Part shown: piece by piece, positions 39,909-60,376 of the stretch
Layout of the letters: each line of letters begins with the position of its first letter
Numbering within the stretch: position 1 is the stretch's first letter
Assembly (NCBI GenBank): GCA_054600435.1
Contig: BAAIJX010000016.1
Span: forward strand, 186,001-250,000
Origin: Neophaeotheca triangularis
Taxonomy: Eukaryota
Direction: 5' to 3'
Length of the DNA stretch: 64,000 nucleotides
Notes under the pieces: generated by a model
The model's database searches: none
Seen by the model: only the letters and a program-made list of their open reading frames with translations
Told to the model about the DNA's origin: nothing
Made by a program: the position numbers and the translations under genes

Positions 39909-40582
39909 TCACTTTCCGCGAGTTTTTGGGATAGCGTCCGAGATATCTTCCGCCTCCTCATCACGAGCCTCCCGAGCGCGAGCCTCCAGACGACGAGCCG
40001 AGCCAAGGCGAAGGGCGGCGCGAGTCATCTCCATCGTCTGAGGTTCCTCGGCGAGCTCCGCGATGATCATTGCCCTGTCGCCCTCCGTCTCCTCCCTGGA
40101 CCACTTGGTACCTGGACGAAGTGGACGTTGAGCGTACTCTTCGATGTTGACTTCGCAGCCCAGCTTCCAGGATGTGGTAGGCTTGGGCTTTTTGGGGTGA
40201 GTGGAATTGGCAGGTTTGATGTCGAACGTGGCGGGCTCAGGTTCGCCTGGCTGTCGCTTGTAGGGGGGCAAATAGATGTACTCCTTCGGTGCCTAGGGTC
40301 TTCAGTAAGCTCGAAACTCTTGAGGAAACGTTCGGGGGGTGTCAAAGGCCTACCGTGTTGCTCGGCTGCCAGCCCTTGTCCCCATTCGTGATGTACTGCC
40401 TTGGTCCACGGGAGAGTCGAAGGGCGCACTCGATTTGGCCTTTGCCTTGGCGTCTCCTGACGACCTGTTCACGGCTATCAGTATTTGCAGAAACCGACGT
40501 TCAGATGGAATTCATACTCGAACGGGCGGGAGCTTGTCTTGGGTGCCTTGCTCAAGTCGTTTGTCCCTTCCGTGTTCTGCAT
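39909..40582 (-). CDS. Orphan small protein, paralog A1 (probably 3 exons; splice sites uncertain)
   Basis: Starts MQNTEGTND and ends PKTRGK*; contains RGPRQYIT and APKEYIY; paralogous to 41303-41918. Confidence 0.45.
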
Positions 40583-41302
40583 CTTGTGTGCTGTGTGCAA
40601 GGGCCGATGGCAGAAAAGGTTGAGGGTGGAAAGGTTGAAAGGGTTGACAGTGGGAGACTTGAAGCTGGAAAGTCGGAGGTGGAGAGTTTGCAAGGTGGAA
40701 GGTAGAAGCCTGAAGGTCGAAGGTGTACTATACGTGAAAGTGAAAGTATAACGTCATGTGTCAGGAGCTGACTATAGGGTGAATGATAGGTGCTTTCGCG
40801 AATTTGCGGCGGCGCCGAGCACGAACAAACGAGATTCATGAGCGAGAAGAACTTTTATGTGGTATGTTGTGGATGATAGAGCAATAGCATGATCGATGTC
40901 TAGGTTTTATGGTAACGCCATGTGGAGTAAACGAGCTTAGGAGTTGCTGCTGTGTGCAAAGGATATATGGAACAAAGGGCTCGTATGATCAAGGCAATGC
41001 CTTACGGTCTTTGTCAGCACATTGTAACCCGTGAGTGACTGCTGCTGGGCGTACAATCAACCGTCGTCAAAGCAATCTTGCGCAGAGAAGCTTCTCGTTC
41101 GAGGACTACGAAACATGACGGACGAGGATGCGTGAGCCGAGCATGGCTGAGAGAGTATTATAAGCAATCAAGGAGTACTACCCTAGGTACTGCTCTAGTA
41201 GCGGCTGCAGATCGCCTTGATATCCAAGACTCCAAGTCGGTCAAGTGATCGCTTTGCAGCTTGCAAGACGGACAAGTCAAGGCCCCAAACCCTTTTAGCT
41301 GC

Positions 41303-41918
41303 CTATTGCTCCCAGCGCTTTGCTTTCTGCCTCCGCCCAAATGCTGTTCGTTTTCCGCGAGTCTTGGTAACTTCTTCGAACATGTCGACCACCTCCTCAT
41401 TCTCAGCTGAATCAATATCTTGGGCCATGCCCTTGGTCTGGGGCTTCCCTTCGAGCTCCGCGTTCGCCATCACCGTGCCCTCTTTGGTCCCAGCGCTGAC
41501 CTTCTTGTTTGCTCGGGTAATTGTGCCATGAGGCGCAGACGCTTGAGGTTTGCTTGTCGTGGGTTCGCGGTTCACAACATAGCTGCTTCCGTCCGTAAGA
41601 TACTGCCTCTAATTTTGAAAAGGTCAATCGCCGTGTTTTATGAGACTGATTCCTAGGCTGCCACAAACATACCACGGGGCTTGGTATGCCCAAGTCTTTT
41701 TCGGGTTTTTTGGCATCCTTCTCCGTGACGTATTCTTTTGGTCCGCGAGGGACGCTTGCTGGCAGACCGGATCTATACAATGGCGTGGGCGCTCTTGATG
41801 GTCTTATCACAATGATCAGTATGTATAGAAATGTGAAACATGAGATAGCATACTTGGAGGTATCCAGGTACCCGTCTGGCGCTTCGTCCACGTCATTGGT
41901 TCCCTCGGTGTTCTGCAT
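41303..41918 (-). CDS. Orphan small protein, paralog A2 (spliced; splice sites uncertain)
   Basis: MQNTEGTND start; RGPKEYVT, RQYLTDG, TKTRGK; GTATGT...TTAG intron near 41609-41671; upstream DNA similar to that of A1. Confidence 0.45.
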
Positions 41919-42465
41919 TTTGCTTGCAGCGAGGGTTGAGGCAGGAATTGGGGAAGGAGGTGAGGTTGTGGATTCTGGCAAAGTCTGGCAAAGTCAGAGG
42001 TCAAAGGTATGCAACACGTGAAAGTGGAATTTATAAAGTAACCTGTCAGGGGTCGACTAGCGTGAACGCGGCGAATCACACAACCATTCACAAATCCGCT
42101 GGTCGGCCATACACGAACGAATGGTAAAGTGTGAGTGGCAGGCATGTTCTGATACCTAGACTATATGTTGATGCTGCATTGTCCTTTTACGGTTGAGGGG
42201 CAATAGATTCAAAGAAGATATAGGACAAAGGACAAGCCTCTTTTGCTTCGCATTATTTGTCCGCCTGACTTAAGACTACTGTTGTGCGAGACAACCGACT
42301 AAAGCTTTCGTCGTCGGAGCACTCATGCGCAGGCCAACTCCCTCTTTGGAAGACAAGGAGCGGAGGACACGACCATGAATCTCTTAGCGGGCCTCGACAT
42401 CTCGAAGACGAAGCCGACCGCTCTGTTTTCAACCAGCGTCGACGATCGCTATGGTGGCTTTGCCT

Positions 42466-43198
42466 TCAGTATGTGTCGCTGAAGGCATCGTCTACGCAAT
42501 CCCACTCCATAGAAATGCCGTCTTCGACCATGACCCAGCCATCCCTTCTCGCCTCCATCGTAGCCCTCGCTTTGACAACCTTTTTCTTCAGTGCCTCTCC
42601 CCTCGACCCATCATCCTTGATATCGCTGCCATCTTTGCCCTTCTTGGCTTTTCCGTTCCCAGAATGCTCGGACTGCTTCGAAGAGCCGCTCGAGGCGCCG
42701 TCGATGATTCCCTTGGTCAAGGTCTGTCCGAGGTTCTTGCGAGTGGGGTTTTGAATCCCCTTGATGATGGCATCCGGATCGTGGGCCTTGAGATTCGCGA
42801 TGTATTCGGCTTCGGTGATGAAAGAAATCTCCGAGGAGAGTTCGGTGACTCTTTGGAGTTTTGGGGCATGAAACTTCTCCACCGTACGTTGGTACTGGTA
42901 TAGCAGTCAGTAAGCTACGGTTGCTCGTTTTTGAGGCATATGACTTACCTCTCCCGAGAGTGCCTGGCATCTAGTGGTCTTCGTGTGGACTGGGGGAGAG
43001 GGCCAATCGTACTCGATGACAGGCGGAGCTGGCTTCGAGGAAGCTTCGCTCTTGCTAAGTTTCGTGTCGTCGGTCTCGCTAGTAGAGGGTTAGTGCCGTT
43101 CCCGTGGGATTGAAGTACATGGAAGTAGCCTACGGGAAGGTCTTCATCACGGTGACCACGTGGGGGCGGGCCTGGGTGTGGTTCATGGTGGTCTCCAT
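42466..43198 (-). CDS. Orphan ~207-aa protein with C-terminal acidic W-x-x-V motifs; introns 43079-43133 and 42895-42948
   Basis: gccaagATGg start; GTAGGC...CTAAC...TAG and GTAAGT...CTGAC...CAG introns splice into one open frame ending DGWVMVEDGISMEWDCVDDAFSDTY. Confidence 0.65.
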
Positions 43199-43822
43199 CT
43201 TGGCTGTGGGATGTGTTCTTGTCTTCGAGGTGGAAAGTAAGTTGGGGTGGGGAAGTGGTGTAGGGATGGAATATAGTAAACGAAAGTAGGAGGGAGGCTA
43301 ATTATACGCTAAGCCAAAAACGGACTAGGGAGAGTGAAGTGAAGGTCGATTCTGCTGATTTTGTGCCGGAATTTCGCATTCACGAACAAGAGAGTGCTAA
43401 GGCCATTGATGCCACGCAGCAGGGCCGAAATTGAGAATGGGATGATATATACTGATGTATTTTTTTAATATTTTTGAACTGCGTCGTCTACCGCAGGCAG
43501 CAATCAAGACATAGCTGCTAGACACATGCATGTACTTCTGCATGCTCGACTTCCGTAACACGCAGAATGAGACTTGCAGTTAAGTACACAATTCGTAAGT
43601 ACAGATAAATGCAGAATCAAAGTAACAGTGTTTCGCAAGAGCAATGTTGAATGAAAGGTTGATCAAATGGACGACGTTCAAGACTACTGTCAAGTGGAGT
43701 CTTTGGAAAACAACACCCCTTTGTTCAAAGTCTTTTTGATATGTGGTTCTGCGGTCGCTACTCGTCGATTGCTGTACGCTCGTGAACCTTCATTCTCGTC
43801 CCGCGTTTGCATCGTCCATTCC

Positions 43823-44300
43823 TTATTGAGGAGAAAGCCTATATAGTCGTTTGCTCATAACCCAATGACCCAAACTTGGAAAGCCTTCGTTCTCAGCCTC
43901 GACAAAGACCCATCCACCTCCCAATTGCTGTTTGTCCTCCTTGCATACAACGCGTTCGAACACCAGATTGCCGCCGAACTCGGTGCTTGGGCTGCCTTCA
44001 ATCACTATAGTGTCCTTCCACGTCTTCTTCCCCTTGACCCTGGCCGACTACGGCCCTCCCCAGCTCGGCTAATGTGAGTGGACCAGTGATGTGCGAGTGA
44101 TATTGGATAGTCTTAATCTCGATGGCCTCAGAGTTGGCACCGGCTGTTTGGTGACAGCTCCGAGCTTGACGATTATCACATTCGAGTCGCCGAGCGCGCC
44201 CGCTGCGTTGGTTCCAAGCAAGGATTACGTCTTTTACCTAGTATAGGTGGTGATCTTGCCCTCCACGGCCCTGGTACGCTTACGCTTCTGTATGTAATGG
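43823..44300 (-). pseudogene. Degenerate member of the W-V-x-V orphan family
   Basis: 3' part reads KQQLGGGWVFVEAENEGFPSLGHWVMS; the upstream frame is broken by stops. Confidence 0.4.
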
Positions 44301-44571
44301 GTCAGCTGAGCCTTCCATCGGCCTCGAGGTTAAGGGTGAACAAGCGAACGAAGCAGTTTGACAATGCAAGACAAGCAATGGAACTGGGCACGCTGATTTT
44401 GACTTCATGTGTGGGGTCGCAGGAAATGCAGTGAGGCACTGCTACTTGAGCGCTTTGGAGGCTGTGGTCTAGTCATAAATCAGACCTCCAGCGCCTAGTC
44501 GTTAAGCCCGAGCCTCCCTTCCCTCTAAATTTGGCTAGACCTGACTGTTCTTGCGAAAGACACAGGGTCGC

Positions 44572-45234
44572 CTAGAGATCAGTGACCCAATCCTCCAGGC
44601 CCTCTTCCTCCACGTCAACTGTGACCCATCCACCCTCGACCTCGTCGATCACTTTCCTCACACCAGTTCCCTTCTTGCTGGCGCCGATAAGATCATTGTT
44701 TCCACCTCCACTTCCGCCTTCCGCCATTCCGATCCCGAGGTCTTCACCAGCCCCCTCGCCCTGAGACTTCCTCTGAGTGTCGATATTTGCCACTTTGCGG
44801 TCGGTTTTGGCCGCCTCTTCCACAGGGCCACCCGCCAATGTGACGTGAAGACGGTTGTTGACGAGATCTGTGGCGGCGACCACCTCTGGAGCGGTGTACT
44901 GGTTGTCCGCAGCAGCTGAGTGAGGGCTCGCGACGTTGACGATAGGGACGATGGTGGTCGAAGATGTGCTCTTGGCTTGAGGGACGTTCTTGACCTTCAC
45001 ACGCTTTCGGACCTGTGGAACTTGTATCAGCCTGGCTCTGCGCAATCGATTGATTAATTGTGGCTCTACCCCTGAAGCGGTTGTGACAACTTTGGTCTGG
45101 ATGAACACGTGAGCCCCGATCATGTCACCCATCATCGTGGGGGTCGAATCGATAGACTCGGGCGTGCGTTCGTCCTTGATAGAGCTGATATTGGTCAATA
45201 TTGCAGCTGGATACAGAGGGCGGATGGATGGCAT
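44572..45234 (-). CDS. Orphan family member B1; intron 45013-45069 (start may instead be 45135)
   Basis: AHVFIQTKVVTTASG|VRKRVKVKN; ends EVEGGWVTVDVEEEGLEDWVTDL*; 57-nt GTAGAG...GCTGAT...CAG intron. Confidence 0.6.
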   Translation of the reverse strand: MPSIRPLYPAAILTNISSIKDERTPESIDSTPTMMGDMIGAHVFIQTKVVTTASGVEPQLINRLRRARLIQVPQVRKRVKVKNVPQAKSTSSTTIVPIVNVASPHSAAADNQYTAPEVVAATDLVNNRLHVTLAGGPVEEAAKTDRKVANIDTQRKSQGEGAGEDLGIGMAEGGSGGGNNDLIGASKKGTGVRKVIDEVEGGWVTVDVEEEGLEDWVTDL

Positions 45235-45904
45235 ACTAGTTCTTCTCGTGGATCTTCTCCGTGGCAGACATGTTCTTAAGAGTGCCTGTCGGGTGAGGTT
45301 CTGAGATTGGCTTGCTTTGAGGACGTGTGGTTGAGTGAGAGATTCGAGGCGTTGAGTAGACAGGGGCGAAGGCGAGTATTTGTCAAATTCGGCGCTGGGC
45401 TGAAAGTAGACTAGATCAGAAGAAGTGAATGCTCGTATCAGCCTATCATAAAGTTCGAGTTTCAGCTTGCACTGCTTGAGGACGAGAACGAGTGCGGACA
45501 TGAGCTCGAACTGTCCACTTAGCTCGAAATATACAGCGTTGAAAAAATTCAATGCCCTGTTCTGGCTAAGCTCTGCCATTGGGCAGGCAGCAGTTTGATA
45601 TATACGAATTTGGTGATGTGGCAAGTACGGATTCTCTTGAGGAAGACACAGATGTACGGAAACAGTGTAGATAAGCTTGTTGGCTGCGTTGCGTGAACGA
45701 CCAAAGCATCAAAGCGGCTTGACCTGTTGATAAAGGAAACACGTAGAGGCGCATCAAGATCGTATCATTAGGGCACTGTAGACAGGCGGAGACTGCTACC
45801 TAACAAAGCACTGGATTTCCTATTGTCAAGACGTCGAGCAATAGCTTTTTGTCCATCCAATCTCTCCGAGGGCACGATTTGTCTTGCGAAGGACAAAGCA
45901 GCTC

Positions 45905-46390
45905 TTAGAAGTCGGTGACTCAGTCCTCCATGCCATCTTCGTCCGCATCCACCGTGACCCAGCCTTCCTCCACCTCCTCCTTCTTTTCGTTGACATCCTC
46001 CAAAGCTCCGACTTTCGGGTCTTTGCCAACGGCAGCGTCATTGAACATCTCATGAGCGCCAATGTCCTCGTCCTTTTTGGTAGTGGTCGTGTTCGCGAGG
46101 CGATGGTTGGCGGCTTCCGCGCCTGCGGTCATCTTGGCAGTTTTCGTAGTTTTCTCCTGAACCTCGCACGCAAGCTTGCCATTGGCGGCGTCGGGCCTCG
46201 TGGCAGCGGTGGGAGCGTTGGCGCGGATGATGCTGGCGGAGTCGTTCTTGACCTTGACACGTTTACGCACCTGTAGACCTCGGATTAGCCCAGTTCTATA
46301 TAGCTGATTGTTATGGTAGAACTTTACCCCTGATGCCGTCGTGATCACCTTGGTTTGAATAAACACGTGGGCGGCTGGCGGAAACTCCAT
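45905..46390 (-). CDS. Orphan family member B2 with a premature stop 5 codons early (TGA at 45920-45922); intron 46271-46327
   Basis: AHVFIQTKVITTASG|VRKRVKVKN; ends EEGWVTVDADEDGMED*VTDF*; upstream DNA 46631-46710 matches 45365-45445. Confidence 0.55.
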
Positions 46391-47011
46391 GTTGTGCTTC
46401 GAAGTAATAGGTCTGACGGACGTTTTGGCTTTGGAAGAGCTGGACAAAAGTCAGTGTTGCAGCTCCTAAACGTGAAAGACACAATTCAACTGGTGACATA
46501 CTCGTATTTCTGAAGACCGTTCTCCACGGCAGGGATTTCCGCGACGGTAGTGTCAGTAGATGGACCTACGTTTGTCTTGGTCTGCAGAAGTTGGTTGTAA
46601 GAGAGTTTTGAGGTTTTGTGCAGGTGGAAAGGCGAAGGTGAGAGTAGGTCAAATTTCGCACTAGGCCGAAAGCAGACTAGATCGTAGGAAGTGAATGCTC
46701 GCTTCAGCCAATAATCGCATGGAGCACGCGGCAACTCAATATATACGGTTCCAAGAGTGTTGCAGACGGCCGTCTGGATGGCAGAGCTTCTGATAGAAGC
46801 ACGGTTTTATTACTTCGCTGTTTGTTTGCTAAGCACAAAGGCCTGGACTGTGATCACTCATAATTTACAAGGGCTTCAATGATTTGGTGCGTTATTTACG
46901 CCATAAGACTGTGCTTGGTTCTACCCTTAGTTGCAAAATGTCCAGATACGGCCTTGTTTCCCGTGATAATTCTCACGTTCTTTGCTCATCAGATGGTCTT
47001 TTTAGAGATCA

Positions 47012-47742
47012 TTAAAACTCCATGACCCAGTCGTCCGTGTCGTCCGTCTCGACGGCGACCCACTCGGCCTCGATCTCGTTCTCCTGAGTGCTGTCGTACG
47101 TGATCACAGAATTCTTTCGTGTAGTCTTTCCCTTCGCATCGCCCTCCATCAACGTGATTTCGCCACACTTGATCACCTTCTTGACCCCGACCTGCTTGCC
47201 CAAAACTTCCTTCCCCTCGCCCTTCCCGCCAGCCGTACCTTCGGCCATGCCATCTTCTCCTCCGCCATTTCCGATCTTGACACCCGCCGCCATGTGGGCA
47301 ATGACATAATCGTCCATGGTGAGTTCCTCTAAGTTGGTGTGCGCACCTTTACCGGCCCTATCCTGTGCTTTGGTTTGCTCGCTAGTGACGAGAGAGCCAA
47401 CACGAGCGGCGGATTGTGGCATCTTCACCGGGTTCAAGCTCTTGATTGTGCTGATCGAGTACCTGCGCACAGCGGGAATGCTGGAGAGATGCGCGCCGCC
47501 ATCATGCCCTCCTGGAGTGGTGACAGCAGCACCGGCAGGGTCGACGTTCTGGACGGTGGTGTTCTTGCGCGAGTAGTAGATCTTCACAGGCTTGGCTTTG
47601 ACGACTTTGGTACCCTGGCAAGCTTGGTTAGTTTTGGTCGAAACATTAAAAGCACCCGGTAAAGACTTACCCCTGAGCTCGTCTTGACCACCTTTGTCTT
47701 GATAAAGGTTGCGGGGGGGATCTCGGAGTCCGACCCCGCCAT
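47012..47742 (-). CDS. Orphan family member C1; intron 47615-47670
   Basis: MAGSDSEIPPATFIKTKVVKTSSG|GTKVVKAKP after a GTAAGT...CTAAC...CAG splice; RRYSISTIKSLNP; ends EAEWVAVETDDTDDWVMEF*. Confidence 0.7.
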
Positions 47743-48293
47743 GTTGAGACTCGAGTGGCTGACGTTGGAGATCGAGGTGTTTTGAGCGCCTCTGACGGAC
47801 TATTAGCAAGTCATACAGCATACTTTCAATCGTAGCAGTCGCAGCATACTCTTATTTTCTGTAGACGTTCTCCGTGTTCCAAAGTTTCTGAAAGTAGGTA
47901 GTGGTAGAGAATAAGTGCCAGTACAGAGCATATGGAGAACTCGAGATGAGACGTGAAAGCGTCGGATACTAAAGTAGTACTGTAGAGTTTTCACAACGCT
48001 AAGCCTAGAGTGGAACAAGTGAGTATGAGGACACTCACACTCGAAGAACAATCCATACGTTTTGGGAATGCTATACATGTGATGATGCATCATAAGAGCA
48101 GACATTGGATAACAGTATTTAAAGCTACTCAAAAGGTTTGCTATGCATGTGGCGAACGACAATGAAAACGACCTTTGATACCGCCTACCCTAGACCTTCA
48201 CCCAATCATCGGCGAGAAGATAGTCATCCGCGTCTTACGAACTCATAGCCCGTCTTTTTGGTCACGCCCTCACAACTCAGAGTCTCACTATCA

Positions 48294-49059
48294 TTAAATC
48301 TCCGTGACCCAGTCATCCGTGTCGGTGACATCTACGGCAACCCAATCAGATTCAGACCCCAGCTCGTCGCCAGTCTCAACGGCTTTCTTCAGCATCCCAA
48401 CCTCACCAAAGTTGGCCACCTCCTTCTTGATCTCGACCTTCAGGGCTTTGGAATCGCTGTCCTGGTCTCTAGTCATTCCGATTTCCGCCACCATGTTGTT
48501 GCCGCCGGTGTTCGTCTGGGCTTGGGTCGTTGGTTGGCGATTGGCGACGTACTCCGAGTGCGCGGCCGGTCCAAGACTGTTGAGAGGATTGAGGCTCTTG
48601 ATCTCAGCGATCGAGTAGCGCCGGGCGGTTGACATGCCGATTGGAGGCGAACCTTGGAGGTTCTTTGAGGCAACAATAGCAGCAGGGTCAACTTCGTTGC
48701 TGAAGGTTTTGCGTGCTTTGTGCATGACGATTGGCTTGCTTTGTGGCTTCTCAGAAAGCTGATTGCGGCGGTTAGCTACCATGACGATACCAAAGCTGAT
48801 CGTTACTCACGGCCGTGGCGGGTGCTGAGCTCTTTGTCTTCCGGATCTTGACCACAGGGTCCGGCGCAGAACCGAAGAAGTCCACTGGGGCGGAGGTTTC
48901 GCGGTTGTTGGGGTTGTTTGAACGCTGTTGCGCACTGTCCTGAAGTTAGCATGGCTTCATGTGAAATCAATTTGGAAAGTCGCAAGTTGTTCCGTACCTG
49001 AAGTTGTTCCAGCGACTGGCCATTGCAGAGTCTGCGCTGGACAGCTTGTAGAAGGCCAT
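48294..49059 (-). CDS. Orphan family member C2; introns 48935-48997 and 48759-48810
   Basis: GTACGG...GCTAAC...CAG and GTGAGT...GCTAAC...CAG introns give one open frame; RRYSIAEIKSLNP; ends ESDWVAVDVTDTDDWVTEI*. Confidence 0.65.
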
Positions 49060-49475
49060 GCTGTACTCTCGACTTTGTGTGTTTGAGGTTCGTTGCAGGT
49101 GGGAAAGGTTTGAGCTCCGTCGAGGAGGAGACTGGAAGGTGGCAGAAAGCCTAGCGTTTGCCAAGAATCGACTAGCGTCGATCAGGTGAACGAATGAAGT
49201 ATACTATTTTTGTCAAAGCTCCTTATTGTCCACTGGGACGCATTCACGAGCTAGTATATAGGCAGATAGCGATTAAAAGTTCTCAGTTGAGCTGACTATG
49301 GGAGCAAGCGTATATACTGTTGCAAAAGTTTGCTAAATGCTCTCATTGCCTCAAGAGCCAATACAAATAACGCATGTCCCAGCTTTGATTGGAATAAAAG
49401 CTTGAAGCAGATGTCTCGTCAAGAAGCGTGCATTCTGAGACAAAAGCACTTGTCTAGATGCGGCAATGCTGGTTA

Positions 49476-49955
49476 TTAAAGGCGACGATGAGGGTTGAGT
49501 GTACACACGAATAGGGATGAGAAGGAAGAGCATTGTAACACGCTGGTATACTGATTTGTAAGAGGCCCGGTAAGACTCTTCTTGGTAGCATCCCCTCGAT
49601 TCATTGTACTCAAGCCTCTACCCCTCCTCGACTCATTGCGCAGGGCCGCCGTCGCCATGGGCGACGAAAACCCAACCTCCGGATCGCCGTTCAAATCCAC
49701 CCAATCCGTATCCTCGGCTTCCACCTTCTTGTCGACTCTCTTGATGGCCGTTTCATCGCCTTCCTTCCTAGCCTTACTAACTTCCTTCAAGCTCTAGTTG
49801 TGGGTACCGCCGGAAAGCTTCTGCATTCCCGGGATGAATGGCTGTGGCGCAGATCATGCTGCATATTGCTGGTACCTAGAGGTGATGCCATTTGCTTGTA
49901 GAACAGTCTGCGCACGGGTTGACTTTGCCATCGTACTGGGGCGAGTGGCCTCCAT
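49476..49955 (-). pseudogene. Degenerate member of the W-V-x-V/L orphan family
   Basis: Frame MEATRPSTMAK...AA*SAP...HN*SLKEVSK...KKVEAEDTDWVDL carries two in-frame stops (TGA, TAG). Confidence 0.4.
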
Positions 49956-54157: not shown

Positions 54158-55664
54158 GCTGTGTGAGAGATGGTATGTCGGTAGATGGTGTGATTGGTGG
54201 GGTTGTCCAGGTTCTGAGAGCGTGAAGTTGCAAGGTGAACTGAAGTCTCGAGAACGACGCCGGAAATAGCACGGGAATGGGTGGGGTACCTTGCTTAGTT
54301 CTATACCGGGAACGAGAGAGACACAGCAAGTGTTTGACCTCTGCAAGTGTTTGCGATATGTCGTTAAACGTCAACACGCACTTCTCGCCAGAACTTGCGA
54401 TTCTAGTGATTGCATCAATACCGGTCTAGTCACGTTGAGAAGCCATTGATCAGACAGTAACCTTGGAATTCTACATTTGCGTTATATAGTATTTACAGAG
54501 TCTTCGTAACGGCCGACGTCTCGCACAAGGTAGGTTGCCCCTACAAGTAGGTCGAGATATGTGTTTACACACACGTTTGTCAGCCTGCCGATGATGTTTT
54601 CAACAACACCGTCAAAGGCATAAAGGACCACTGCTACGAGCGAGTGCAGAATGTCCTTGCAGAAAAGACAACGAGGGCCGTCCAACGAAACACAGCGACC
54701 ACGCCCGCCATGTCTACCCAGCTCCTACAAAACCGCCGTATCTACTAGAAGCCGCCTCGAATGGTCGCTACAAAGCTAGGTATACCTCCCAGATACCGTA
54801 TCCTCTCTCCATGCAATCTCATCATCCTCAACGCTCGGACAGCGGCGGGCAAAGAAACTTGCTTACTCGTCTCGTTGCAAAAATGATCAGCACCTAAAGG
54901 AGAGCGACTGGAGCAGATCTATCACATTGTACATTCTGACTTGAATACTTCCGTCGTTCGCCTTAAGACCAGAGATGTGATGATTCGGGTGCTGAGCATT
55001 TGAGCTTGCAGCCATTCATGGAGGCGAGAATCAACATTCGATCGTCCGAGGAGTATGTTGAAAGTCTTCGAAAACGCATTGCAGCAGTGTCAAGAATCAA
55101 GACTTTGTTCGCACTTCGCTGCCAAGGCCTGTTAAGCGAGCGAATCGTACTACATACTACGACAAGCGCTATTCAGGAGCATCTAGCAGGCAGGATGCAG
55201 TCCGACATGTTGAATACCAACCACACATCAGCCTCCACGGTCGAACGGCTTTTATTGCCGGGTGTCATGCAGCATGCTGAATACAGCGCTTAATCGTTAG
55301 CCACCCCGGGCCCCAGGGGCTAGCGCAGCGGCTCTTCGCTTAGGCCAAGGGGGGCTTAGTGACAGCTCAGGCACAACCTGCGTGCCTAAAATTTATGGAA
55401 GGGGTTGTAGCCTCACCGGTCCTCGTCGTAGAGTCTGACTCGAGCTATCTCCACCGTATACACATGTCGAGGGGCAGCCTGTGGCGGAGCTCGCGGTCAA
55501 GCTGAGCGCCGGCGTTACGCATAAGAGTGCTGAGCTTCCTCAAGGCTCGGTGCTGCAGAATCTCTATGCTGCCTTTCCCATAGGGCAAAAGGTTTACCTA
55601 AAAGTCTACGCACAAGTCACCAACAGGGAGCCTTTAAGCCCCTATTACCCCGGGATTTTGGATA

Positions 55665-57776
55665 ATGAACGCCGTGATTCAACAGGGAGCCGAGATTCTC
55701 GAGGGCACAAAAAGGATTCATGAAGCGCCTTTATCGAATCTGTGTGGACGATGTGAGGCCATCTTTAGTCGTAGCATCGAATCCTACGATGAAGAGTCGG
55801 ACGCCCGAGGCCCATGGGACGAAAGATGTAATGTCTGGGACCCAATCACTCACGTCAGGCGTGGAGTACAAGAACATAGAAATTGGCCATGCGAATGCGC
55901 CTACGAGGTGCACGACGAAGTTGCCGGATACTACACCTGTTGGTCGGCTCCATGCTGGTACTCACATCATTCGGCTCAAAGTCTACGACGGGCGGCTTCG
56001 GCAGGATGTGCGCTATGTTCCGAGATTCGGCAGACCATGCTCAAGGGCTACAGAAATAAATTCACGAACTTCCCGATCTGCTACACTTTCTCCAAAGCCG
56101 ATGTCAGCGTTTCTGGTAAGATGTGTCTTATATTCCAACGAGGCAAGCGTCGTAGGCTTCAGCGCATTTATGGGCCCCGTCATCGCAGATTCCGTTTCAG
56201 CGTTTCCGCAGATTGGAAAACCGTAGCGACGGCTGTTCTGGCGGAGGCTACTGGATCGACTGGAAGCCCTGAATCACTGGATCTCGCCAACACATGGCTC
56301 AAGAACTGCTTGAACAATCATGCGAGCTGCTCAAAAGCACGAATCCCGGACCAGTATCCCACGAGACTACTAGCACTGGATTTCAAGCAGGCCAAGCTAG
56401 TAGAATGCGCGTCAGAGCCTCCAGACGGACCATATGCGACTCTAAGCCACTGCTGGGGCACAATAGAATTCACGGTACTCAACCCTACTACGTATAGTCG
56501 TTTCCGTCAGGGAGTCCCTCTCGACGATTTTCCGCCGTCATTTGAAGATGCCATGCGTGCAGCCCTACATCTTTCGATCCGGTATATATGGATCGATTGC
56601 TTTTGCATCATCCAGGAAACTAGCGACTGGGATGTTGAAGCGCCTCTCATGCAACAAGTCTACTCGAATGCAATACTGAACATCGGGGCAACGCATGCTC
56701 GGAACCCCTTTGACGGTTGCTTTTCATCTCGTCCGGCGACTAGACGACCACGCAACGCCGTCTTCGTCGATTGGGCACACAAGACTGGAGAACGCCCAAC
56801 CAAATTTGCAATTGCACGCGAGCATGATTTCGACAGTCAAGATCATGCGAGCCATTGGATGAAAGAGTCAATCTTCACCCGGGCTTGGATTGTCCAGGAA
56901 CGTGCCCTCGCCCCGCGAATGTTACATTTCAGGGGCGACAGAGTGAGCTGGGAATGCACGACCGCAGAATACCTCGATGAAAGGGACTCCGGTATCACGC
57001 GAGTATTGGATCGAATGCCCGCCGGTAAGAAGGAGCTCAGGACTTTAGCGTACCCCGGAGCTTTGAATCCTCGGAATGCAGACGGTCCGGCGCCTTTAGA
57101 TTCCGAAACGCTGGGAAGGCTGTGGTCGGGTATCTTTAGCGCGTATACGAGAGCCTCGTTGACACGACCCAGCGATAAAGCTATTGCGATACACAGCGTT
57201 GCGCAGCGCATCGGTGACCTGGCCGGCTTTCGATATACGAAAGGTTTCTTTGTAGAGAGTCTGCCAACGGCTCTTTGCTGGCAGCGAAGAGGAGGAGAGT
57301 TGGGCTCGACACAATTGCAAGAGTCGCGAGCGCCGTCATGGAGCTGGCTATCGTTGGACGGAGATCTCCAATTCGACTACAACCCCTTCGACCATAAGCC
57401 GGGGAAGTTGCTTGCTTCCTGCCTCTGGGTTAACGAGGGGCCTTCGATGTACGTGATTGGCAAGACCTGGGATTCGGTGGAAGAAATCAACGCTCCAGGG
57501 TACTATTTTGCTCCGACCATCGACGCTTATCCGGGAGCTCCCCCGGAAGCAAGCTTCCGGAACTGTATCTGTCTACCCATACACGAGAAGGACCTTGGAG
57601 ATATTCGTTGGGAGAAGCGCAAAATCATCGGACTCCTCCTGGCGAAGCGGCCGAATGGTACTCACCGGCGGGTGGGACGTTTTGAGTTATTTGAGGGCAG
57701 ACCCTCCAAGTCGGCCCGGAGAGAGTTACTTGCCCATTTCGCAAAGAAGCGGGCGCGTGTTATGGCGATCGAATGA
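55665..57776 (+). CDS. Heterokaryon-incompatibility (HET) domain protein, TOL-like
   Basis: WLKNCLNNH, PTRLL, YATLSHCWG, YIWIDCFCIIQ, MQQVYSNAILNI, TRAWIVQERALAPR, RAPSWSWLS. Confidence 0.92.
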   Translation: MNAVIQQGAEILEGTKRIHEAPLSNLCGRCEAIFSRSIESYDEESDARGPWDERCNVWDPITHVRRGVQEHRNWPCECAYEVHDEVAGYYTCWSAPCWYSHHSAQSLRRAASAGCALCSEIRQTMLKGYRNKFTNFPICYTFSKADVSVSGKMCLIFQRGKRRRLQRIYGPRHRRFRFSVSADWKTVATAVLAEATGSTGSPESLDLANTWLKNCLNNHASCSKARIPDQYPTRLLALDFKQAKLVECASEPPDGPYATLSHCWGTIEFTVLNPTTYSRFRQGVPLDDFPPSFEDAMRAALHLSIRYIWIDCFCIIQETSDWDVEAPLMQQVYSNAILNIGATHARNPFDGCFSSRPATRRPRNAVFVDWAHKTGERPTKFAIAREHDFDSQDHASHWMKESIFTRAWIVQERALAPRMLHFRGDRVSWECTTAEYLDERDSGITRVLDRMPAGKKELRTLAYPGALNPRNADGPAPLDSETLGRLWSGIFSAYTRASLTRPSDKAIAIHSVAQRIGDLAGFRYTKGFFVESLPTALCWQRRGGELGSTQLQESRAPSWSWLSLDGDLQFDYNPFDHKPGKLLASCLWVNEGPSMYVIGKTWDSVEEINAPGYYFAPTIDAYPGAPPEASFRNCICLPIHEKDLGDIRWEKRKIIGLLLAKRPNGTHRRVGRFELFEGRPSKSARRELLAHFAKKRARVMAIE

Positions 57777-58283: not shown

Positions 58284-60376
58284 TCACCTGCCCCCTACTC
58301 CTCTCAACCCCCCAGTTCCCCCAACGTCCACCCTCCGCGTCGCAGTCGGCGTCGGACTCGCACCCCCATCTCCATACAAATCCTCGCTCTCCCTACCGCC
58401 AGCCTCGCTACTTTCAAGCTCATAAGCCGTACCGGGGCCAATTTTCTCGCTGTCCAGACTTCCTGTACCAGCATTACCATGCCCTTGCTGTGAAAGTGAC
58501 TGCGGCGGGGAAGCAGCACCATGCATCACCATCCCGCCTACAGCCTCGTGCTGGCGGTTGACGAAAGACGGCGTGATGGTGGAGTTGTGCCAGGGGCCGG
58601 GACCGGGGCGTTGGGGACTTTTGGGTTGGTGGTCGTGGATTGGGGATGTGGGGGAGACGGGGGAAGTGTTGGTATTGTTTTGCGGCGAGGTGGGTGTGGG
58701 TTCGAGGGGACTTTGTAATTGTTGGGGATAGGAGTATTTGTTTCGAAAAGATGGTGGAGGACCAGGAGGAGGCGAGTGGGAGTGGGTTTCGGTTGGTGGT
58801 TGGTTGGGGTTGGGGCTGGGAGGGGTGTAGGCGTAGGCGTTTTCGAGGTCGATGGTGTTGCGTCGATTGTTTGAGGATGGTTCTTGGGGGTCGGCAAAGG
58901 GGTTGGAGGCGTGGAATTGGGATTGCCGTTGTTGTCGCTGTGGAGGTTGTTGTTGGAGGTTTTGTGAGAAGGGATTTGTTGAAGGGAAGCCGTTGTAGGT
59001 TGTTGGGGAGTCGGCTTGATTCGGGTCGTAACTGTTGTAAGCGGTCGGTGAAAATGTTTGTTGCCCTTGCGGCTGCTCGCGTGGTGACTGCACGCGGTTG
59101 TGGAAACCTGCCATCATCCCCGGTGGTGGACCTGGAGGACTCTGATAACTATTGCTTTCTGTTTGGACGCCCCATCCGTTACTTCCGACCCTCTGTTGTG
59201 GAGGTTGATACTCTCCCGATTGTGGTCTCTGCGTTCCCCAAGCCAATCCTGCCCCTTCCTGTCCACCCCACCCATTCGACGACACCCTCTGCGGACTCAT
59301 ACCCGCTACACTCTCCCTCTGACCAGGCGCAGGCGGACCAGCAAAAGCCCCAGTACCATCCTGCATGGCCTCCAGATTTGGACTACTCGAACTGCCCATC
59401 GCCCGTCGTGCTGCCAAGACTGCACGCTGGTGTCTACTCTGCGCCAGACTCAATTGCTCGTTCGTTTCAATCAACGTCTGCAAAGTATCGTGATCCGGCG
59501 CGGGGGAATCGCAGTTGATGTAGATCTGCATGCTCCGTGACGCGGATTGACATCGCTCGCTGAATTCGCGAAGCAGCTCATTCGATAGCACATCTTCGGG
59601 GGCCGTCGTCTGAACAAGCTGTAACAGGATTTTAGCCGTGTTCTTCGCCTCTTCGACCCGACTTGCCAGCTCATATGGCGGGGGAAGCTGATTCCGACTT
59701 AGCGCCCGGTGACTGCTGTGCTGATGCACAAGCGGCGGTGGAGACACCACACCCGCACCTCTTTGCACACTACCCTGTCTACTTTGTCTCCGATTAGTCA
59801 AGCTCGCCTCACTGCCTTTCTCTTTTCTCCACATCGCCAGTATTCCCTGCAACCCCTGATCATGACTCTTATTCACCTCAAACGAATCCAAGGTCTCTCT
59901 TAACAGTTGCTGCACATTCGAAGCCCTGCAATTACGCAAACAGTCCTTGACAGTCTTGACGAAAGCTTGGTCAAAAGACCTTGTAAACATCGGGCCAGGA
60001 TTGTCGGACAAGATTCGTATGAGCATGATCGCGTGATATTGAACGTCTGGCTTGGAACCATAGTCTTTTGTCAAATACTTCCGTATCTGCTGCGCAGATG
60101 CCGCCGCAGCAGTGGGTGAAGACTCGGCAGCTTCGACAATCACGGGGAGGTGGAGAACTTCGTCTTCTTGGTTGGATGGGTTGGGGGAGTCGCAGAACTC
60201 GCGGACTGCGCGCGTGGCGTTTGCTTCAGGGCTGTCGACTGGCGCATTGTTCACATTGATTTCGCGGGAGTTTTGTGAACCTGGGAGAGTATCTCTGTTA
60301 GCTAGAATGGGATAGGAGGTGACTGGCGAATTGACTTACTCTTGGTTCGGGTGAGGAGGTTGCTGAACTTCTTCAT
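58284..60376 (-). CDS. VHS-like + GAT domain protein with P/Q-rich tail and NPF motifs (endocytic/trafficking adaptor); intron 60281-60339
   Basis: EVLHLPVIVEAAESSP, ELASRVEEAKNTAKILLQ, EFSERCQSASRS, TLIETNEQLSLA; NPF twice; first exon MKKFSNLLTRTK spliced via GTAAGT...GCTAAC...CAG. Confidence 0.8.

Follow-up and report, generated by a model that had tools for sequence, protein, structure and literature searches.

We describe a tandem array of small genes in a 64,000-nt window of the genome of Neophaeotheca triangularis that encodes highly diverged proteins with a conserved acidic, two-tryptophan tail. We propose, with a probability of about 0.4, that the internal W-V-x-V motif of this tail is an Atg8-interacting motif of the GABARAP-preferring type (GABARAP-interaction motif, GIM), which would make the proteins candidate Atg8 binders. 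All coordinates are positions in this window, i.e., the whole stretch of DNA that was analyzed, and the basis of the work is one genome and sequence analysis alone. An open-frame listing and a three-frame translation of 42.3-50.4 kb placed all units of the array, named A to G in the order of their positions, on the minus strand. An earlier note on this DNA had regarded them as one family of seven; according to our comparisons the array consists of four genes that are demonstrable paralogues (C, D, E and F), a marginal relic (B) and two doubtful members (A and G). The family is undescribed and an Atg8-type motif in a disordered tail is of a well-known kind; unusual here is that such a motif occurs in a tandem family of orphans and belongs to a tail of two parts, the last of which is a C-terminal tryptophan motif.

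The claim that the C-terminus is the best conserved part of the proteins was confirmed in the alignment of the four paralogues. Among the 20-column windows the tail ranks first (mean BLOSUM62 pair score 2.57, pairwise identity 43%), followed by an N-terminal motif with 1.12 and 29%, and the mean of the whole alignment is 0.16 with 16% identity. Six of the 12 invariant columns are located within the last 21 residues. In detail, the tail is composed of an internal motif, [EDG]-W-V-[TA]-V-[DE], and a terminal motif, [DE]-D-W-V-[TM]-[DE]-[LIF]-COOH, whose tryptophans are 11-13 residues apart, and the terminal motif is conserved as strongly as the internal one. The tail of C (EVEGGWVTVDVEEEGLEDWVTDL; 44575..44643, minus strand) carries W-V-T-V at 44628-44617 and DWVTDL at 44592-44575. 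In E (EAEWVAVETDDTDDWVMEF; 47015..47071, minus strand) the two motifs are W-V-A-V at 47062-47051 and DDWVMEF at 47035-47015, and in F (ESDWVAVDVTDTDDWVTEI; 48297..48353, minus strand) W-V-A-V at 48344-48333 and DDWVTEI at 48317-48297. The tail of D (45905..45976, minus strand) reads EVEEGWVTVDADEDGMED, with W-V-T-V at 45961-45950, followed by a stop, VTDF and a second stop. As the end of an open reading frame (ORF) the terminal motif occurs three times in the whole window, namely at C, E and F.

A comparison of the substitution patterns revealed that the tail is kept by selection on the protein. The proportion of synonymous differences (pS) is saturated at 0.63-0.75 in all six pairs formed by C, D, E and F, compared with 0.35-0.51 for nonsynonymous differences (pN). 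In the last 22 codons pN falls below that of the remaining codons in each of the six pairs, with 0.13 versus 0.39 for C and D and 0.25-0.31 versus 0.44-0.55 for the other five, and it is the combination of this low pN with a tail pS that is still high (0.44-0.78) that indicates the selection. The same tail pS values rule out recent gene conversion as source of the tail conservation. Using nine Pfam-supported genes of the window as reference (codon index 0.66-0.83), the codon index of C to F was 0.74-0.78 in frame and 0.55-0.66 in the shifted frames, with a GC content at third codon positions of 0.67-0.72, and judged by these values the four units look like real coding genes. At the codon aligned with the ATG of C, unit D has ATC (46536-46534) with the signals of the first intron still present, and at the second tryptophan codon of its paralogues it has TGA (45922-45920), behind which V-T-D-F and TAA are still in frame to 45905. 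D may therefore have been truncated recently at both ends, a sequencing error being less likely. As B is also decayed, these disabling-type changes point to birth-and-death turnover, and the whole looks like an old array that is subject to such turnover.

Kinship among the four genes is evident at several levels. Unit C (g1897, P0002, 215 aa as annotated) extends over 44572..45271 with exons at 45271-45237, 45184-45070 and 45012-44572, and D (g1898, P0003, 137 aa) over 45920..46390 with exons at 46390-46328 and 46270-45920. E (g1899, P0001, 224 aa) covers 47012..47742 (exons 47742-47671 and 47614-47012) and F (g1900, P0004, 216 aa) covers 48294..49059 (exons 49059-48998, 48934-48811 and 48758-48294), all on the minus strand. 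These exon models were built from splice signals and match the annotated proteins except for C, where the annotated g1897 (P0002) retains a 63-nt in-frame second intron (45069-45013, minus strand) with GT..AG ends, translated as 'VEPQLINRLRRARLIQVPQ'. The matching stretch is spliced out in the models of D and E, and the unspliced intron is probably an annotation inconsistency. C and D are linked by tblastn with an E-value of 2.8e-21, E and F with 6e-10, D and E by BLASTP with 6e-6 via the N-terminal motif ('..HVFIQTKVITTASG' and '..TFIKTKVVKTSSG'), and C and F with 1e-3 through the tail only. The four copies are 28-36% identical. When the 1824 six-frame ORFs of at least 20 aa in the window were searched with a profile built from the four proteins, all four genes were recovered, unit C with an E-value of 2.8e-63. 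At the DNA level, where the comparison of copies was confined to the 64-kb window, paralogous blocks are 65-79% identical: C and D share 65% over 494 nt (75.5% in the 98-nt tail), the alignment of E and F is limited to the 58-nt tail (79%), and D and E agree in 66% of 80 nt in the tail and 73% of 49 nt in the N-terminal motif. Furthermore, a phase-0 intron directly behind the N-terminal motif ('..KTKVVxTxSG') is common to C, D and E, and in F the corresponding place is likewise occupied by an intron.

The peptides on which the earlier note was built could all be recovered, as each of the seven quoted strings is present on the minus strand at the place claimed. In the W-V-x-[VL] motifs the tryptophan codons start at 42537, 43912, 44628, 45961, 47062, 48344 and 49703; consecutive starts are separated by 1375, 716, 1333, 1101, 1282 and 1359 nt, so that the stated distance of 1.2-1.4 kb holds for four of the six gaps and not for the other two. 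The description of the units as small and hydrophilic proved correct (137-224 aa; fraction of I, L, V, F, M, W and Y 0.21-0.26). W-V-x-V occurs 18 times in the six frames of the window and seven of these occurrences are on the minus strand of the 7.3-kb array, a clustering that exceeds chance (binomial P 3.6e-5), with the restriction that the seven include four paralogous copies, which are not independent of each other. Consecutive gene numbers were assigned to A (g1896), C (g1897), D (g1898), E (g1899) and F (g1900), and B is absent from the numbering. The proteins of the family are annotated as hypothetical proteins, and each of the five proteins, that of A included, is the single member of its cluster and is known from one contig.

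All four proteins are consistent with intrinsically disordered proteins. AlphaFold2, used here as a proxy for disorder on an alignment that is shallow with its four sequences, returned a mean predicted local distance difference test score (pLDDT) of 33.5 and a predicted template modeling score of 0.15, with no residue at or above a pLDDT of 70 and values of 30, 29 and 26 for the last three 10-residue blocks. G, S, T, A, P, N and Q together account for 0.43-0.51 of the residues. The net charge is +3 to +6 in the first 60 residues and -7 to -11 in the last 40, and by inspection there is no signal-peptide-like N-terminus.

The earlier note had also called the family lineage-specific, and the protein searches for homologues or a known family gave none; the claim holds within the proteins searched and for the one genome studied. 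When 1,835,955,588 representative proteins were searched exhaustively with a HMMER profile (E<=0.001), four matches were returned, each from this window. Other Dothideomycetes are represented in this library, and a related collection yielded Atg8 matches in Cercospora, Elsinoe, Aureobasidium, Polychaeton and 'Dothideomycetes sp. NU457'. Word-based searches with exon 2 of E and with the exon of A recovered only the queries themselves (one of 177 and one of 12 candidates, respectively), and none of 311 pattern matches in a scan of JGI metagenomes was confirmed. With Pfam neither the ORFs nor the proteins gave a match at the cut-off, the best being Enolase_N with 17 bits against a cut-off of 35; neither the family profile nor the tail profile had a meaningful match among the PDB sequences, and the ESM Atlas returned 0.88 to an ascomycete cluster and no named match. 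A literature search with six hexapeptides of the tail found no paper. On this evidence the family is an orphan in the sense that it has no detectable relative among the proteins searched, a definition that leaves fungal genome DNA and tail-only relatives outside its scope, and the sequenced species nearest to N. triangularis may be only distantly related.

The reading of the acidic W-V-x-V/L motifs as Atg8-interacting motifs (AIM), also known as LC3-interacting regions (LIR), is supported at the motif level for the internal motif and failed for the terminal one, which has no LIR core. Using the xLIR regular expression of PMC5119064 we found exactly one match in each of the proteins of A, C, D, E and F, always at the homologous site in the tail, and as background the six frames outside the array contain 87 matches among 93,307 residues (9e-4 per residue). 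By inspection GGWVFV of B fits xLIR as well, and TDWVDL of G does not. The narrower GIM, defined as [W/F]-[V/I]-X-V by Rogov et al. (2017; PMC5538626), is found in six of the seven units, as WVMV in A, WVFV in B, WVTV in C and D and WVAV in E and F; WVDL of G does not fit. The LIRs listed in that paper include ESDWVAVRP of JMY, EDEWVNVQY of PLEKHM1, DDFWVRVAP of KBTBD6, DEVWVQVAP of KBTBD7 and TDDFVMVPA of ULK1, and F, which reads ESDWVAVDV, is identical over seven residues (ESDWVAV) to the human JMY LIR as quoted there. A reads DGWVMV and is close to the candidate GABARAP site DWVMV of PI4K2A, as reported in PMC11499380. The core of the FIP200-interacting region (FIR), which binds the FIP200 Claw, is psi-Theta-x-x-Gamma according to PMC7946963 (acidic; bulky hydrophobic or aromatic; L, I or V), and by this definition E-W-V-A-V of E and D-W-V-A-V of F conform to it. 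The terminal motif was rejected as LIR or FIR by the same definition, since D-W-V-T-D-L, D-W-V-T-E-I and D-W-V-M-E-F have D or E at the Gamma position. The internal motif sits where AlphaFold2 predicts no fold, which we use as a proxy for a disordered and accessible region.

A GIM-type motif is a sensible fit in a fungus, because on sequence grounds fungal Atg8 is GABARAP-like. Atg8-type ORFs were fetched from metagenome contigs by a short degenerate motif, which yielded 117 loci with 45 complete ORFs of 110-140 aa. One of these, L041, matched Pfam ATG8 with 2.7e-51 and is 97-100% identical to many ascomycete Atg8 proteins. The Pezizomycotina Atg8 P0008 (122 aa), which represents a cluster of 861 members, matched the PDB in the order fungal and plant Atg8, then GABARAP, GABARAPL1 and GABARAPL2, with no LC3 chain among the best 60 of 112 matches, and it shares 59% of its residues with a GABARAP-type ORF.

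We therefore favor the Atg8 reading of the internal motif, as the strict W-V-x-V, the acidic context, the predicted disorder and the constraint all fit. The family, its coding and orphan status, the absence of a predicted fold, the tail constraint and the motif matches are direct results, from which we infer Atg8 binding and any role in autophagy. In this reading the array is a species-restricted tandem family that evolves by gene birth and death; its disordered proteins, about 140-225 aa long, are basic in their N-terminal part and acidic in the tail, which would be the functional element. The internal motif would dock on Atg8 as an extra beta-strand, with the tryptophan in the first hydrophobic pocket of Atg8 and the second valine in the second pocket, and the proteins would act as Atg8 binders in the form of adaptors, receptors, substrates or competitors. 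A second, separable docking element could be provided by the terminal [DE]-D-W-V-x-[DE]-hydrophobic-COOH. Both parts of the bipartite tail (AIM plus terminal motif) postulated by the earlier note are conserved, and the terminal part has neither an LIR nor a FIR core. A more far-reaching version, in which the family represents lineage-specific disordered Atg8 binders that serve as minimal selective-autophagy receptors or tunable Atg8 'sponges' and combine a GIM with a new C-terminal docking motif for a second Atg8 site or another autophagy factor, seems unlikely to us.

Several observations weigh against an Atg8-binding tail. The constraint on the tail shows that it is important and does not name the binding partner, and not every copy is maintained, since D has lost the terminal motif and the ancestral start and B is decayed. 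The probability of a random xLIR match is 1.5e-3 per position, and the authors of the pattern warn of many false positives (PMC5119064). The stricter cLIR pattern is matched by none of the five proteins, whose positions -2/-1 are G/G, E/G, A/E, S/D and D/G, so that in C and D the tryptophan is preceded by glycine and not by an acidic residue. As the terminal motif lies outside the LIR and FIR cores, half of the conserved tail is left unexplained by Atg8 binding. Furthermore, Pfam and the PDB gave no cargo-binding or membrane domain, and a short cargo motif is possible; 'receptor' and 'decoy' are therefore guesses, and such a role is speculative. Finally, acidic tryptophan motifs are also read by coat and adaptor appendages, the Arp2/3 complex and transcriptional co-activators.

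This last point leads to the explanation that we consider quite possible, namely that a different partner recognizes the two-tryptophan acidic tail as its short linear motif, such as a Claw-type domain of Atg11/FIP200, a coat or adaptor appendage, the Arp2/3 complex in the manner of its 'acidic-W' ligands, or a transcriptional co-activator. In the co-activator version the proteins would be small, basic and possibly nuclear, and their tail would serve as acidic activation domain. The charge distribution suits this idea, with the first 60 residues basic and the last 40 acidic, and C and D carry RKRVKVK beside the N-terminal motif, a stretch that resembles a classical nuclear localization signal. 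The terminal motif is equally conserved and yet no LIR, which is easier to understand with another ligand, although the spacing of 11-13 residues between the tryptophans is wider than in di-tryptophan coat motifs and Pfam revealed no DNA-binding, WH2 or other supporting domain. The FIR core has the same pattern as the LIR core (PMC7946963), and the internal motif would suit a Claw domain equally well. It is this likeness, together with the use of acidic tryptophan motifs by other machineries, that gives a different partner its weight, but none of the alternatives predicts the strict, beta-branched W-V-x-V as well as the GIM does.

Two other explanations have less in their favor. N. triangularis is described in the literature as a black yeast of saline and marine habitats, and the small, hydrophilic proteins with a G, S, T, A, P, N and Q fraction of 0.43-0.51, no predicted fold and a tandem arrangement could be hydrophilin-like or other stress-related disordered proteins of a halotolerant organism, with copy number serving dosage and the tail serving self-association or solubility. 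We regard this as improbable, since W, V and V are retained at fixed positions where all else diverges freely, which speaks for a specific docking motif and not for bulk physicochemical properties, and copies with 28-36% identity are too diverged for a simple dosage array. It is still less probable, to the point of being very unlikely, that the array is made up of ORFs which are in decay or never had a function, an annotation artifact or a dying family whose motif resembles GIM by coincidence. The missing homologues in the protein searches, the decay of B and the truncation of D at both ends would agree with such a scenario, but the reading frame and splice sites were kept despite saturated pS, the codons are typical of the genome and pN is lowered in the tail, a combination that requires selection on the protein.

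The remaining units of the array are less clear; the 1824 six-frame ORFs were scored with the four-protein profile and with a tail-only profile. Unit B (43823..44329, minus strand) is not annotated and reached an E-value of 0.013 with the four-protein and 0.041 with the tail-only profile. Its tail ORF (44047-43826) has W-V-F-V at 43912-43901 and the second tryptophan at 43864, and a stretch like the N-terminal motif ('..HYIQKRKRTRAVEGKITTYTR'), followed by gtaaaag with a GT donor, is located at 44329-44237. B has no in-frame ATG, there are in-frame stops between the pieces and it was not annotated, and it is therefore best read as a decayed copy. Unit A (g1896, P0005, 207 aa; 42466..43198, minus strand) shares the motif and offers a number of weak hints. 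It is not significant with the four-protein profile (E 2.4) and is absent from the tail-only list at E<=50; its tail gave an E-value of 0.005 and a probability of 7% in hhalign. W-V-M-V is at 42537-42526 and the second tryptophan follows 11 residues on (W-D-C-V, 42504-42493), a spacing as in E and F; 'HVVTVMKTFP' stands ahead of the first intron, and the upstream DNA at 43281-43355 is 66% identical to that of D at 46633-46708 (E 0.004). Each of these hints is non-significant on its own, and A is possibly a distant member. Unit G (49479..49793, minus strand), an ORF without ATG before the motif, was not matched by the four-protein profile, and the tail-only E-value of 6.4, which aligns its tryptophan with the terminal and not with the internal motif, is not significant. 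As its W-V-D-L (49703-49692) and a W-V-F-V 29 nt away (49674-49663) are in different frames, a frameshifted or rearranged relic is suggested.

Some features are shared by pairs of genes. An 85-nt block upstream of C and D (45365-45449 and 46631-46715) is 79% identical, more than the 59% found from the start codon of C onward across exons and first intron, and may be a shared promoter or 5'-untranslated region element; a search with two short cores of the block detected it ahead of none of the units A, B, E, F and G. E and F both carry RRYSI[SA][TE]IKSLNP (47429-47467 and 48585-48623, minus strand), which C and D do not have. This stretch resembles the eIF4E-binding motif Y-x4-L-hydrophobic with its L..P continuation, and the Caf20 N-terminus. 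An identity as Caf20 or 4E-BP was rejected: I-K occupies the L-hydrophobic positions (Y-S-I-[SA]-[TE]-I-K), the stretch is absent in C and D, and Pfam CAF20 was not found at E<=10.

The surroundings of the array are ordinary core genome. Of the 152 ORFs with 110 aa or more, 129 were included in the Pfam scan of the neighborhood (the 23 omitted mostly overlap the array or lie opposite long genes), and no Atg8 or other autophagy gene was among the 129 ORFs scanned. Upstream of the array we found isocitrate lyase (35.2-37.1 kb) and, at 38-39.7 kb, an MFS transporter; from there to A, in the interval 40000-42400, no ORF has a Pfam match. The downstream side has a zinc-knuckle ORF (51.1 kb), Prp18 (53-54 kb), a HET-domain gene on the plus strand (55.6-57.8 kb; ORF 55638-57773), a GAT-domain gene on the minus strand (58.3-60.3 kb; ORF 58287-60335) and SAP18 (61.9-62.8 kb); no link of the HET-domain or the GAT-domain gene to the array was seen.

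With receptors of the Atg19/Atg34 type the array proteins have in common a probably disordered acidic C-terminal tail, a candidate tryptophan-based Atg8 motif and more than one putative docking element. They differ from them in having no sequence similarity, no recognizable cargo-binding domain and no match of the Atg11-binding type, as the terminal motif does not fit the FIR core; in addition, the terminal tryptophan and the last hydrophobic residue are four and not three positions apart, and there is no W-x-x-L at the carboxyl end. The GIM-type binders JMY, PLEKHM1, KBTBD6/7 and ULK1 are alike in the W-V-x-V core, the acidic surroundings and the unfolded sequence (PMC5538626). Their carriers are unrelated, whereas the array consists of small orphan fungal proteins with no other domain, and the array motif, a candidate binding site, lies 11-13 residues ahead of a second, terminal tryptophan motif. 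The oomycete effector PexRD54, which is lineage-specific, is described in PMC4775223 as an ATG8 binder that displaces a cargo receptor, and is a precedent for the idea of a 'decoy' (competitor) only. By that account it is secreted, folded and active in the host, in contrast to the array proteins, which have no signal-peptide-like N-terminus and would act in the fungus itself.

If the tails do not bind Atg8, the array would represent ordinary fast-evolving disordered orphans whose conserved short motif points to another partner. If they do, N. triangularis would possess a rare orphan tandem family built around an autophagy docking motif. The array would then be a compact natural system for the origin of new Atg8 interactors and for the role of a second, C-terminal tryptophan motif.

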